Shown here: in pieces, positions 14,070 to 18,499 of the stretch | Layout: the number at the start of each line of letters is the position of its first letter | Numbering within the stretch: position 1 is the first letter of the stretch | Assembly: GCA_031370005.1 (NCBI GenBank) | Contig: JANMPT010000110.1 | Span: 96,001 to 160,000 of the forward strand | Origin: Bdellovibrionales bacterium | GTDB lineage: Bacteria > Bdellovibrionota > Bdellovibrionia > Bdellovibrionales > Bdellovibrionaceae | DNA length: 64,000 nucleotides | Direction of reading: 5' to 3' | Notes under the pieces: generated by a model | Told to the model about the DNA's origin: nothing | Database searches by the model: none | The model's input: only the letters and a program-made list of their open reading frames with translations | Made by a program: the position numbers and the translations under genes

Positions 14070-14143
14070 TGGTGGCCCCACCGAGAATCGAACTCGGACA
14101 TCCTTGCGGATACTGGATTTTGAGTCCAGCGCGTCTACCAATT
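14070..14143 (-). pseudogene. 5'-truncated, intron-less tRNA-Leu(CAA) copy (att-like remnant)
   Basis: Minus strand reads AATTGGTAGACGCGCTGGACTCAAAATCCAGTATCCGCAAGGATGTCCGAGTTCGATTCTCGGTGGGGCCACCA; the first 13 nt of the tRNA are missing. Confidence 0.9.
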
Positions 14144-14191
14144 ATCGACAAAAGTATTGAAATGACTTGGAAAAGTCAAAAAGAAAATCCG

Positions 14192-14223
14192 TTAGCCTTT
14201 TGGGCTAATCCTTAGCCCTTTGG
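14192..14223. repeat. Clustered TTAGCC(C/T)TTT repeats, possible integrase arm-type sites
   Basis: TTAGCCTTTTGG (14192), inverted GGGCTAA (14202-14208), TTAGCCCTTTGG (14212). Confidence 0.5.
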
Positions 14224-14253
14224 AACCCCCTGAGTATTCTCAGGGGGTTTTTT
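14224..14253 (+). terminator. Intrinsic terminator upstream of the TA operon
   Basis: AACCCCCTGAG-TATT-CTCAGGGGGTT followed by a T run. Confidence 0.8.
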
Positions 14254-14280
14254 ATACTTAAAACCTGCTAATCTTTTTGC

Positions 14281-14310
14281 TTGCCTTATTTGTAGCTTAT
14301 ATGCTACATT
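14281..14310 (+). promoter_or_regulatory. TA promoter with palindromic operator
   Basis: TTGCCT (-35) ... TGC-TACATT (extended -10), overlapped by the TGTAGC-N6-GCTACA inverted repeat (14291-14308). Confidence 0.65.
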
Positions 14311-14317
14311 CAAAAAT

Positions 14318-14656
14318 GTGGAAGCTAAACCTCGTCGTATTCGCATCTATGAAACCGAAAATGGCAAACGGCCATTTGAAGAATGGGTTAAGGACCTAAG
14401 AGACCTGCCCACGGTTCGCAGAATTCAGGCCCGCCTTGCGGGCGTGAGTGCTGGAAATCTGGGTGATGTGAAATCTGTTGGTGAAGGTGTTAGTGAGTTG
14501 AGGTTGGCTTTCGGGCCAGGGTATCGGGTTTATTTCGGTGCCGTTGGTAATGAACTGATTATCCTACTGTGTGGTGGTGATAAAAGTTCGCAGGATAAAG
14601 ATATAAAAAAGGCTAAAGAATTTTGGTCTGATTACAGGAGCAAGAACCATGAATGA
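14318..14656 (+). CDS. Type II TA toxin, RelE/HigB-like (addiction module killer family)
   Basis: Y....GKRPFEEW...RI.ARL....GNLGDVKSVGEGVSELRL.FGPGYRVYF....IILLCGGDKSSQDKDI.KA signature. Confidence 0.93.
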   Translation: MEAKPRRIRIYETENGKRPFEEWVKDLRDLPTVRRIQARLAGVSAGNLGDVKSVGEGVSELRLAFGPGYRVYFGAVGNELIILLCGGDKSSQDKDIKKAKEFWSDYRSKNHE

Positions 14657-14960
14657 AAAAGCAAGTCGTTCTTATGATGAGTGGGTTGTTGAATCACTGA
14701 AAGGTGATGAAAAAGCCCAAGCGGAGTATGTTCAGACTACGATTGAGGACAACCAAGGTTTTCCTAAAGCAATTCTGGTTGCCCTTCGCCATGTGGCAGA
14801 GGCTCGTGGTTTTAAGAACTTCGCCGATGAAACAAAACTCAACCGTGAGACACTTTATAAAACATTGTCTGAAGACGGAAACCCCACCTTGGAGAGCCTT
14901 ACAAAAATGCTTGATGTGTTGGGGCTTGATATTTCGGTAAAACCTAAAAGAGCCAGTTAA
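14649..14960 (+). CDS. Type II TA antitoxin, Xre-HTH (addiction module antidote family)
   Basis: ALRHVAEARG...A.E..LNRETLYKTLS..GNPTLESL.K.L..LG; overlaps the toxin stop. Confidence 0.92.
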   Translation: MNEKASRSYDEWVVESLKGDEKAQAEYVQTTIEDNQGFPKAILVALRHVAEARGFKNFADETKLNRETLYKTLSEDGNPTLESLTKMLDVLGLDISVKPKRAS

Positions 14961-14971
14961 GAAGTTTAAAA

Positions 14972-15317
14972 TGGTGGCCCCGGGGAGAATCGAACTCCCA
15001 CGTCCTTACGGACACTGGATTTTCTTACCACTCTGGTTTTCACCAGCTCTTGTTAAAGAGTTTGTGGTCTGGACTATGCCTTGACCGTGAAGCCTTACAG
15101 CTCGTTAGGTCCCGCTCGTCTAGTCTCTACACCTTCCGAAGAGATTTCTCTCTAAGGCTTGGCTCGGCATTAGCAGTCTAATTTTACTTAGATTAAGCCT
15201 TCACCGAATTTGGGCGGTTCTACTCCGAGGGTTTCCCCAAGGGCACTCAAGTTATGCTGACTTTTTATGAGGTCAGCGGTCTGAGTCCAGCGCGTCTACC
15301 AATTCCACCACAGGGCC
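14972..15317 (-). tRNA. tRNA-Leu(CAA) interrupted by a group I intron (exon 1 15317-15283, exon 2 15023-14972; 87 nt spliced)
   Basis: Acceptor GGCCCTG/CGGGGCC-A-CCA, D arm GGTGGAATTGGTAGAC, anticodon stem CTGGA/TCCAG, long variable arm, GTTCGATTC T loop; joining the exons gives the loop CT-CAA-AA. Confidence 0.93.
15024..15282 (-). ncRNA. Group I self-splicing intron (IC3/tRNA type), 259 nt, no homing endonuclease ORF
   Basis: Core elements P AAATTCGGTGAA, Q AATGCCGAGC, R GTAGAGACTA, S AAGGCATAGTCC; P3 CCGCCC/GAGCGG; P7 GACTA/TAGTC; IGS TTGAGT; GAAA-capped P2 and P9 hairpins; terminal G at 15024. Confidence 0.92.
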
Positions 15318-15460: not shown

Positions 15461-16549
15461 CTAGGTTTTTTCGGCTACAAGTAAGCCGTGATGCATGGGT
15501 AATTTACTAACTTTTATTTTTGAGAAACCGGCCTTTCGAATTAACTGTAGATACTCGTTCCAAGTATAGAGCATGCCCTCTCCCGTGGCGAGGGTGAGGA
15601 AATAGGGAGAGCCCATGGAGGCCGACATGGGGCCAGTCTCATTATTATTTTGCATCATATTGAAAATGACTAATTTGCCACCATCGGGCAATGTATTGTA
15701 GACGTTTTGAATAAGTTTATAATTTTTTTCCAGGGACCAAATCGTTAAAAAATGACAGAGAATGAAACAGTCCGGGCCCTTGGGAAGGGGGTCGTGGAAA
15801 CAATTCCCTTCGTACGCAGTGAGCCGAGTGCTAAGGCCATGATTTTTAAAGTTGTCACGCGCAAGTGCAGCAACACTTGGCGAGTCAAAGACGCCACCCT
15901 TTAAATGCTCATTAGCTTTCACTAGTTTCATAATATTTTCGCCGGCTCCACCGCCGATATCAACTGCAAATTTTGTATTTGAAAGGTCCAAATTTTCTAA
16001 TAGTTGCTGGTTTGCTTGACGAGAAATATCCTCCATAGCTAACTGGAAAACTTGTTCAAGTTCAGGGTGTGAAGCCAATCGCTCATAGAGCGTGGTTCCA
16101 TTTCCTGGAAATTCTTTAAGCCCAACATTTGTATTTTGTAGAATGGATTCGTAAAAATAAGGCATCGCCTTATAATTTATAAAATTCTGCCAATTTACTA
16201 TATTATTAATGCATTTTGGACTGGATGATACGAAAGAAATTTCAGCAAGTTTTGAATTATAATAGAACTCACCTTTCTTTTTGAGCAAGTTCAGAGACGT
16301 GAGGCCTAAAAGAAGTATACGACAAGGCTTTTCTTCAATTTTTAAGAGACCAGCGAGTTCATCCTTGGTTATTCTCTTGCGTGAATTGATAATGTCAAAT
16401 ACGCCTAAGCGAACTGCGGCAGCTAAAGTTTGAAAATAAATATGCCCACTGAGAACTAAATACAGCTCACGAATTTTATTTCTAAATAATACTTTTTCAA
16501 ATACGTAGACAGCAATAAAGGTCCTAAAAATTCTAACTAAATGTCTCAT
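15461..16549 (-). CDS. Class I SAM-dependent small-molecule methyltransferase (Methyltransf_2 type with wHTH dimerisation domain)
   Basis: LAAAVRLGVFD dimerisation helix, VDIGGGAG SAM motif, GNCFHDPLP, LPDGGKLVI; AAGGAG SD. Confidence 0.9.
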   Translation of the reverse strand: MRHLVRIFRTFIAVYVFEKVLFRNKIRELYLVLSGHIYFQTLAAAVRLGVFDIINSRKRITKDELAGLLKIEEKPCRILLLGLTSLNLLKKKGEFYYNSKLAEISFVSSSPKCINNIVNWQNFINYKAMPYFYESILQNTNVGLKEFPGNGTTLYERLASHPELEQVFQLAMEDISRQANQQLLENLDLSNTKFAVDIGGGAGENIMKLVKANEHLKGGVFDSPSVAALARDNFKNHGLSTRLTAYEGNCFHDPLPKGPDCFILCHFLTIWSLEKNYKLIQNVYNTLPDGGKLVIFNMMQNNNETGPMSASMGSPYFLTLATGEGMLYTWNEYLQLIRKAGFSKIKVSKLPMHHGLLVAEKT

Positions 16550-16609
16550 GTCAGCTCCTTGCGGTAGGCTATATGGAAACGATATGAACTCAAGTTCAAA
16601 AAATTATTA

Positions 16610-18499
16610 TTGAGGAGGTTTTTGGATCGATCTATTGACATGGGTGGCAAATTAATAGATCGTGCTGCAATGAAAACCGCCCGTGACATTGTGGACATGC
16701 TAGAGCTCGCATTAAAGCTCCGCTTACTTAGGAAGTGGGAAGAGTTAGAGATTATTATTAAATCGATTCGCGCTGTAAAAATTGATGATGAGTATAAGAA
16801 AAAATGGATGGCCATTCAAATCCAGTTACTAGAGCAATCTCAATTTCGATATGAAAAAAATCATGAAGAAAAGATAAAAATTATACAATTGGCCGAACGG
16901 ATTTTGTCAGACGATGACAAGCGAAAATCATTTATCTATCAATATGAATTGTCTGGATTGTGTATAGCCAAACATTCCTATTTAAAGGGACTAGAGTCTG
17001 CGCTTGCAGCTGTTAAAGTAACAAATAATCCAAACGGAAAAATATCAGCCTTGGTCAATGGGCTCGTCTGTGCTGAAGCCTTAGACTTAGAAAGAGCAAA
17101 GTTACTTGTAAAAACCAAGCGGCTACTTTCACAATCCAAAACAAATGCGATAAATCCGTTGGTTGTTCGAGAGCTTGCTAATTTTCAGCTAAGAGAATAC
17201 TTTAGGTTAGGCGAGTTTCGAAAAGTGTTCACAAGCATTCATGAGCCAAGAATTAAAAAAGATATTTCGCTTTATCAGGCATGGATACAGGCATTGCCCC
17301 ATATTAAACTAAAGCAAAAATATGATATATTTAATTTGCATTCCAAGCAAACAACCACACAAGTAAATAGAGAGTATAAATTAGACACGCTCTTGCATAA
17401 GTTTGATTCTGAAAATATTCAAATTGCTGCAGTTCATAATATCATTGATCGCATTTACCTATGGTCTTGGCGGTTTTTTTGTGATCCATATAAATACCCA
17501 ATTGAAAATTTGCAAACCTTGCTCACCTCATTGGAGCTATCAAAACTTAAAAATAAAATGACGTCAGAAGATAAATTGTTGTTTATGAGCTCACTCTTAT
17601 TGCTGTCTTGTTTAGACACGTCCTTGCTTTTGAAAGTTAAAAAGCTCGAGAAAGCATTGCACCCGCTCAATTATGGTTCATATCCATATTTGAACTATGA
17701 AAGGAAATTTATTGAGTTGTATTTGGCGAAGCATTTGGGAGACCCGAATTATGAGACCTTAAGGCTCTCGTTAATTGCAGATGATTTTATGAGCAATGCC
17801 TACATCACTTTTAACAAGTATATAAAGTCGAATTTTGAGTCCTGTTATGGTCTCTTCGTGCTTGATATGCATCATCTGGAATTGAAGAATAAAATTCCAA
17901 TTGAGGCAGAGATAGTTTTTAATTCATTGACTGGGATGATCAAATTCACTCGTGGATGTAAGGCATTAAAAAGTGAGTTATTAGTCAATGCGCTGTCGTA
18001 TTTTTTTCACTCAGAAAGTCAGCAAGTATCTGCCAAAGACTTTTTTATTTCTGTTTTTGGGGGTAAAGATTTTGATCCAGCGACTAACTATAGACAGGTG
18101 TTTAATGTAATTCAAAGGCTCAATCTAGTAACAAATGGAAAACTTAAAATCAGGTATAAAAATAAAAAGTTATTGTTCGCTATGGAGAAAGAATCATTTT
18201 TCTCAGAAAATCATATTTTTCATGAAATTAGTTTCAACGCCTCGTTTTTTCAAAAAAGACTTTCGAAATGGTTGGGAGAATTGAGTAATAAAACCGCAAG
18301 TAAGAGCGCGCAAGCGAAGCGATCTCCGGCCAGTGTCTTTTTAACACAACAGAAGCTGACTCGAATAGATATTCAAAAGGCACTAAATACTTCAAAAAGT
18401 ACAAGTATAAGAATTCTTAATGAGTGGAAAAAACAAAAAATCATAAAATGCTCTGGCAAGGGGCCAGCGACTTCCTATTGGCTAAGCGAGCTTTCGTGA
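16610..18499 (+). CDS. Large putative transcriptional regulator (helical N-terminus, two C-terminal winged-HTH-like domains); start uncertain
   Basis: VSAKDFFISVFG..FDP....QVFNVIQRL resembles an OmpR-type wHTH; LTRIDIQKALNTSKSTSIRILNEW...IIKCSGKGPATSY is a wHTH; AT-rich DNA. Confidence 0.65.
   Translation: MRRFLDRSIDMGGKLIDRAAMKTARDIVDMLELALKLRLLRKWEELEIIIKSIRAVKIDDEYKKKWMAIQIQLLEQSQFRYEKNHEEKIKIIQLAERILSDDDKRKSFIYQYELSGLCIAKHSYLKGLESALAAVKVTNNPNGKISALVNGLVCAEALDLERAKLLVKTKRLLSQSKTNAINPLVVRELANFQLREYFRLGEFRKVFTSIHEPRIKKDISLYQAWIQALPHIKLKQKYDIFNLHSKQTTTQVNREYKLDTLLHKFDSENIQIAAVHNIIDRIYLWSWRFFCDPYKYPIENLQTLLTSLELSKLKNKMTSEDKLLFMSSLLLLSCLDTSLLLKVKKLEKALHPLNYGSYPYLNYERKFIELYLAKHLGDPNYETLRLSLIADDFMSNAYITFNKYIKSNFESCYGLFVLDMHHLELKNKIPIEAEIVFNSLTGMIKFTRGCKALKSELLVNALSYFFHSESQQVSAKDFFISVFGGKDFDPATNYRQVFNVIQRLNLVTNGKLKIRYKNKKLLFAMEKESFFSENHIFHEISFNASFFQKRLSKWLGELSNKTASKSAQAKRSPASVFLTQQKLTRIDIQKALNTSKSTSIRILNEWKKQKIIKCSGKGPATSYWLSELS

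Follow-up and report, generated by a model that had tools for sequence, protein, structure and literature searches.

The analysed window is a 64,000-nt stretch of DNA from a Bdellovibrio-like bacterium of the order Bdellovibrionales. On its minus strand it contains a tRNA-Leu(CAA) gene (14972-15317) that is split between C34 and A35 by a 259-nt intron whose terminal base is a G. ARAGORN, run with introns allowed, calls this gene as tRNA-Leu(CAA) i(36,259) and finds no other Leu(CAA) gene genome-wide; neither ARAGORN without introns nor Rfam at gathering thresholds gave a match in the window. An intron-less fragment of 74 nt (14070-14143), lacking the first 13 nt of the gene, lies 828 nt downstream in the same orientation. 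It shows exactly 8 differences from the spliced gene, at spliced positions 46, 51, 57, 60, 61, 75, 76 and 77. This layout agrees with an earlier reading of the stretch from its sequence alone (hereafter the sequence-only reading), which had described the intron-bearing gene, the downstream copy and the 8 differences. The 23-nt identity that it reported between the two copies is also real, its final base being the first A of the intron. The 828 nt that separate the copies are occupied by a toxin-antitoxin (TA) pair of two ORFs.

The tRNA gene stands at its family-wide locus, adjoining genes for an outer-membrane protein, rimP and nusA, names assigned by protein similarity. By eye, the DNA upstream of exon 1 resembles the host leaders of congeners. 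A promoter scan of the window called no tRNA promoter. Positions 15461-18499, which separate the tRNA gene from that of the outer-membrane protein, have 36-39% GC and encode an O-methyltransferase and a 629-aa protein with a weak HTH match. This segment may be a separate insertion, since the congeners examined carry other ORFs or none there.

Table 1. Features of the tRNA-Leu(CAA) locus, in window coordinates.
Feature	Position	Strand	Basis
tRNA-Leu(CAA) exon 1, nt 1-35, ends at C34	15283-15317	-	tRNA call
ORF-less group I intron, class Leu.3Cg	15024-15282	-	Intron_gpI match, fold, identity to m153
tRNA exon 2, GGGAG/CTCCC allele, inferred to be element-derived	14972-15023	-	Comparison of alleles and junctions
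Element left-end junction, 15 nt	14957-14971	-	In G123 and G002, these 15 nt follow the tRNA, ahead of the integrase gene
Antitoxin, HI1420-like addiction module antidote	14649-14960	+	TIGR02684; PF21716
Toxin, HI1419-like, RelE/ParE family, bacterial type II TA	14318-14656	+	TIGR02683
Terminator-like hairpin	14222-14251	+	Shared with the intact island of G123 (95% over 40 nt)
attR arm of the element family	14149-14187	-	Common to G123, G126, G189 and G314
Element-side mimic of D arm and anticodon stem	14125-14143	-	Perfect here; degenerate in 3 other readable attR sites
Putative crossover core at the anticodon loop	14118-14124	-	Mapped in relatives, transferred by homology
Intron-less 3' half (CCGAG/CTCGG allele) displaced from the earlier host gene	14070-14117	-	Allele comparison, G181

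The last 7 nt of the left-end junction also match the end of the TA cassette, and a microhomology join is possible at this point. Just inside attR, positions 14190-14222 contain two short direct repeats and an inverted copy, which could be arm-type integrase sites.

With two tRNA alleles in such proximity, the locus could be an assembly chimera of two strains. Contigs of the run that is the probable source (86% of the run read) leave room for this, as none spans the locus or covers the TA stretch. However, they match the three flanking pieces exactly and at equal depth (10.9-11.7), and the same layout and flank are found in two related genomes, G123 and G126. We consider a chimera extremely improbable.

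The intron aligns with the whole Rfam Intron_gpI model at 33.9 bits (E 1.8e-6), below the gathering score of 50 and above the 20-bit threshold of a survey of bacterial tRNA group I introns (Williams 2020, bioRxiv 10.1101/2020.01.27.920355). With its site after C34 of tRNA-Leu(CAA), a C(-1):G pair in P1 and a terminal G, it has the features of class Leu.3Cg, of which that survey lists 72 cases. P1 was read from the sequence: the C at -1 pairs with a G of a guide sequence at about 15244-15251, a pairing that the energy-minimum fold did not show. The intron folds better than its shuffles (z -2.7), and both the guide motif and the terminal G are present in 26 of 26 related introns. The longest stop-free stretch in the intron is 51 codons, hence no ORF, and no endonuclease ORF was found in the intron or in the islet between the tRNA copies.

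According to the same survey, which tested anticodon-loop sites only, splicing of Leu.3Cg introns still needs testing. One RNA-run contig, from small-share runs only, skips the 259 nt, as an intron-less gene of a relative also would. That introns of this class work can be argued indirectly, because the intron-bearing gene of the window is the only Leu(CAA) gene found in its genome. The Leu(UAA) tRNA may also read UUG by wobble.

In the TA pair announced by the sequence-only reading, the toxin scores 120.8 bits against TIGR02683 (cut-off 62.85) and the adjacent antidote 63.9 bits against TIGR02684 (cut-off 53.7), placing both above the curated cut-offs for a type II TA pair of the HI1419/HI1420-like kind. 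Homologues of the cassette are found at other sites with 74-91% identity, and at the 12 loci examined no tRNA was called within 1.5 kb. Because it occurs elsewhere with no nearby tRNA, we regard the TA pair as a separate passenger, and a role in stabilising the islet, as suggested in the sequence-only reading, would be hypothetical; the possibility that it forms a core part of an integrative element was rejected on the basis of these 12 loci.

Nucleotides 1-13 of exon 1 joined to the fragment fold as a normal tRNA-Leu(CAA), which differs at 1 of 87 nt from the complete gene present at the syntenic locus of G181. Thus, the fragment is a once-functional allele, as had been proposed. The T stem of the intron-bearing gene, GGGAG/CTCCC, is the usual one in the family whether the intron is present or absent. 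The CCGAG allele of the fragment was found in only 1 of 57 loci from other genomes, again the complete gene of G181. That gene uses G7.U66, which renders moot the argument drawn earlier from acceptor pairing (G7-C66 in the intron-bearing gene against G7.U66 in the fragment). The displaced CCGAG allele is absent from the three intron-less congeners, a point against the reading favored below, which would need an earlier replacement.

Relatives reveal what the locus may once have contained. In G123 a full layout is preserved: a host 5' stub of the tRNA gene, about 175 nt of spacer, a complete tRNA-Leu(CAA) gene with its intron, an integrase (PF00589), cargo and attR. The stub ends at the anticodon loop, and an intron-less 3' half is located beyond the right end of the element. 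The stub and this 3' half have in common a compensatory anticodon-stem pair, CCGGA/TCCGG, that is absent from the element's own gene; they are therefore the two halves of one host gene. The attR of G123 matches the right end in the window at 86.6% over 127 nt. A left end of the G123 type is found in another genus (G002, 91.9% identity over 987 nt) with different host DNA in front of it, on a contig of only 1.9 kb that could be misbinned. The islands of G123 and G126 (the contig of the latter begins 19 nt before the gene) measure about 9-10 kb, and one of them has a weak Rep_trans match. No phage genes or structural families were detected among the island ORFs scanned. In the G126 island, an 866-aa class I aminoacyl-tRNA synthetase (L061, 1957-4554) is encoded directly after the integrase.

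Of 384 genomes from the order, 30 have the tyrosine integrase family. The combination of stub, spacer and complete replacement gene is seen repeatedly, at Leu(CAA), Leu(UAA) and Leu(GAG). Among integrase loci of CAA type, the 8 closest were taken, one of which has no upstream DNA, leaving 7 to be scored. All 7 encode a complete tRNA of the same isotype, and a stub is present in 5. The replacement gene carries an intron in 6 of them, at the anticodon in 5 and in the D loop in 1; the remaining locus has a divergent intron-less tRNA. The sequence-only reading had supposed that the element brings only the 3' half of the gene, which does not agree with the whole replacement gene carried by intact elements. 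The identity of intron and junction suggests that the element of the window likewise carried a complete tRNA. The intron is optional: related elements do without it (G142, and elements of UAA, GAG and Cys type), and in G199 an intron-less gene is followed by element downstream DNA and an integrase remnant.

The att and intron-junction patterns were unmatched in viral contigs; one search gave three matches, none of which passed the tRNA test. Viral contigs contained no close integrases, only two distant ones, and a metagenome scan with the integrase alignment found none.

Within the element left end, a TGGTAGA-like D-loop motif appears twice in each of 5 spacers, a result reached by at most 8 of 1000 shuffles for a motif that was chosen post hoc. 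It may be a candidate binding site. A motif in the element leader presumably resembles a boxA antiterminator; a search of the window's genome gave no match to it. In G042, two stubs lie about 220 nt apart, and an earlier replacement gene appears to have been split by a second element.

The position of the crossover can be deduced from the att sites. The D arm of attR is readable at four sites having the window's arm. In G123, G126 and G189, attR disagrees with the host up to position 28-29, the mismatches falling in the D arm and anticodon stem, and agrees with it from the anticodon loop on. From these mismatches, strand exchange falls within the anticodon loop, which leaves the D-arm-like DNA at attR on the element side, not the host side. 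A short common core and a host tRNA that is not rebuilt at the junction are both found in relatives; the window retains only attR. The putative core corresponds to the very site that the intron interrupts in the functional gene. In the integration model of the sequence-only reading, the att remnant with its displaced intron-less host 3' part stands, whereas the D-arm crossover is not supported by these three att sites. The alternative it had offered, a crossover near the 3' end with a native intron, receives no support from these att sites either. One attP-like junction was found (L130, 1-330), with arm-like DNA, a degenerate D arm, the anticodon loop, a spacer and a complete intron gene in this order. 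It would correspond either to an excised circle or to a tandem insertion.

The window itself differs from its relatives in having a perfect D arm at attR, which is also expected from a crossover in the D arm. A collapsed element, whose attP would join the arm and D arm directly to the intron and exon 2, could have recombined through the 22-23-nt D-arm identity by means of its integrase or of host recombination. This route predicts an absent stub together with a host-identical D arm at attR, as seen in the window, and a collapsed circle could come from a stub-less locus. However, all 3 other attR sites with a readable D arm show it in degenerate form, among them that of G126, whose gene already carries a host 5' end. 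Neither a circle nor an attP of the collapsed form was seen, and the sole attP-like junction, L130, combines a degenerate D arm with a complete intron gene. We consider this route unlikely. The intron would still be delivered by the element, so that the element would be the intron carrier in this route as in the one that we favor, integration in the anticodon loop.

The distribution of the intron was then compared with that of its hosts. A full-length anticodon intron in Leu(CAA) is present in 16 of the 384 genomes, among them 3 of the 6 congeners. This presence in the genus, with GGGAG/CTCCC as the usual allele of the family and CCGAG in 1 of 57 loci, led to an initial reading in which the intron is native and the intron-less fragment is foreign, acquired through a crossover near the 3' end. 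This reading was dropped because integrases and stubs flank those genes. Indeed, in 2 of the 3 intron-bearing congeners an integrase comes right after the gene, and the introns of these congeners are not most closely related to one another. Crossover at the att sites falls in the anticodon loop, and the intron gene is directly followed by DNA of element type. A native intron is therefore very improbable. The sequence-only reading had regarded an intron-bearing GGGAG allele in relatives devoid of the TA pair as decisive for nativeness. Such relatives do exist, yet they do not establish it since many of their loci carry element marks.

In genus g7, 2 of 9 genomes have the intron and the same 2 of 9 have the integrase. 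A stub or element downstream DNA accompanies 6 of the 17 genomic intron loci and 1 of the 39 intron-less loci, a descriptive comparison as kin are not independent. The element leader motif is present at 8 of 17 intron loci and 0 of 39 intron-less loci; this motif was defined after seeing the intron loci, and here too kin are not independent. Note that the intron-less set includes G042, which also has stubs, located farther upstream than the mark test reached. None of four element marks was found at 6 of the 17 intron loci, namely those of the window's genome (G000), G003, G036, G313, G195 and G304. In a metagenome sample, a search with the intron 3' junction alone gave 63 matches. The 12 of CAA class were analysed, the rest being chance matches, UAA introns or introns of other lineages. 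A stub or stub-like junction was seen in 6 of the 12 and an integrase in 4. Intron-bearing copies whose acceptor and T stem are damaged occur in L213 (G195) and L125; with the intron-less copies also present in G195, they point to decay of an intron gene.

A near-identical intron is carried by an element in another host. Over aligned columns, the window intron is 99.6% identical to that of m153, an element with stub, spacer and integrase, the host stub of which is a visibly different tRNA. Intron and downstream junction taken together match m153 at 97.8% over 362 nt; exon 2 differs in the variable arm. Identity of the intron is 93% to other genera or another family and 87-95% to congeners. NusA identity is 94-96% inside the genus and 72-81% outside. 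Thus, the intron does not track its host, since its identity across genera remains high while that of NusA falls. As proposed in the sequence-only reading, the intron of the window most likely arrived with a mobile element and with no homing endonuclease.

It could be argued that an intron-less replacement gene integrated and acquired its intron afterwards, either through gene conversion or with the help of a homing endonuclease supplied in trans. G199, with its intron-less gene beside element DNA, is an example of the required precursor, and exon 2 and intron alleles are mosaic among elements. Against this, both the intron and the downstream junction match intron-bearing elements, as described for m153, and the endonuclease is missing from intron and islet alike. 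The donor would still be an element copy. We judge this course of events to be quite unlikely.

Taken together, these data lead us to read the locus as a decayed tyrosine-integrase element of Bdellovibrionales that integrated in the anticodon loop with an intron-bearing replacement gene, lost stub and spacer through 35-nt repeats and then lost its integrase. We give this scenario a probability of roughly 0.72. The window retains the left junction, the hairpin and the attR flank of the element family. Its islet contains no stub, spacer or tyrosine integrase, so that the individual steps are read from relatives, and the genome has only an 87-aa fragment of a related integrase, located elsewhere. 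First, the integrase would have attacked the anticodon loop of an intron-less host tRNA-Leu(CAA) gene, as the sequences of relatives show for their own loci, so that recombination left the 5' stub on the left and the 3' half on the right of the element. Second, the element would have supplied, about 175 nt inside its left end, a complete replacement gene as in relatives, here with a group I intron in the loop used by the integrase. Third, the stub and exon 1 of the replacement gene, acting as 35-nt repeats, would have recombined with each other, deleting stub and spacer. Exon 1 of the window is thus probably the host 5' stub merged with the element exon 1. Upstream of it no element spacer was detected (local score of 14, against 336 for G002). 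The intron-bearing gene would thereby have come under the host promoter and attL would have been destroyed. Fourth, integrase and cargo would have been lost, with the separately mobile TA cassette in their place. The intron would have ended as part of a resident chromosomal gene, without a homing endonuclease.

Possible intermediates are found in other genomes. G006 has no stub and has kept the integrase. In G126, a host-type 5' end is joined to an element 3' end, with the matching host 3' end at attR. In G314, the attR arm lies less than 300 nt beyond the intron gene. Finally, G003 and G036 have the intron without any element mark. We read these loci as probable stages of decay; they belong to different lineages and do not form a time series.

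By analogy, we propose that the element family works like tRNA-dependent prophages. Such tRNA-dependent lysogeny is known in actinobacteriophages, where phage Gaia uses tRNA-Leu(CAA) (Guerrero-Bustamante and Hatfull 2024, PMC10865867). The Bdellovibrionales elements differ in being small islands whose replacement gene is usually interrupted at the core by a group I intron; in that study the word intron occurs only in a reference title. Likewise, the main text of the intron survey draws no link between Leu.3Cg and islands or integrases, although its supplements may list these introns (Williams 2020). The intron class and tRNA-dependent integration were thus already published separately. A literature search found no paper joining tRNA introns to integrative elements, with subscription literature largely outside its reach. 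The present analysis contributes the case of tRNA-Leu(CAA), a position for the crossover, the disagreement of intron and host relationships, and a decayed end state in which the intron is part of a resident gene. The observations would extend tRNA-dependent integration past actinobacteriophages.

Classical tRNA-targeting genomic islands restore the gene with a 3' half provided by attP. The window resembles them in its displaced 3' tRNA fragment at the far end and in its TA cargo. In contrast to classical islands, it is a whole second gene that serves in the intact relatives, and attL does not rebuild the tRNA; the window looks classical because its stub is gone. Fragments of tRNA genes are described as island scars (PMC9897764). 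Island finders keyed to 3' fragments alone would misread such loci.

The findings also bear on intron mobility. Many bacterial tRNA introns are short, have no homing endonuclease and show a patchy distribution. Models based on homing or reverse splicing deal with the arrival of introns at intron-less alleles, and reverse splicing is described as lacking direct experimental evidence (Hausner et al. 2014, PMC3984707). In the Bdellovibrionales elements the intron instead rides in the replacement gene and no endonuclease is needed. This would be a route of intron spread at the DNA level with visible intermediates: the element integrates, splits the host gene, replaces it, collapses and decays. Because the intron sits in the crossover core, and because G042 appears to show a replacement gene split by a second element, we hypothesize that the intron protects the replacement gene against the integrase. 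Since some related elements have no intron, such protection can be at most an advantage. A broader idea, which we put forward tentatively and consider rather doubtful, is that replacement-tRNA elements are a main vehicle of ORF-less tRNA group I introns. The intron would be kept because it hides the element tRNA from integrases while still yielding a working tRNA. The unrelated introns in the anticodon-loop core and in the D-loop motif, the latter motif recurring in the spacer, would be independent solutions. Collapse would fix the intron and make the host gene immune to further integration.

The D-loop intron is a second group I intron of tRNA-Leu(CAA), unrelated to the first (L071, 2339-2550, in G057; L254 in G128; L224/L255 in G023). 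It is inserted after U20, measures 212 nt in G057 and scores 43.8 bits with Intron_gpI; its removal gives a normal tRNA. Among the 384 genomes it is present in these 3, with a stub and an integrase in G057, a stub in G023 and only an element-type leader in G128. Our literature search found no report of this site in tRNA-Leu(CAA).

A parallel case exists at Leu(UAA) in the window's own genome. There, a stub, a spacer and an intron-bearing gene are located at the end of contig C49, two displaced 3' halves are on C84, and a complete intron-less gene is at the start of C40. Leu(UAA) introns accompanied by stubs or integrases were also observed in L216 (G174), L219 (G308), L222 (G313), L223 (G315), L226 (G006) and L218 (G303). 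In two of these genomes, G006 and G303, the intron-bearing gene comes after the integrase.
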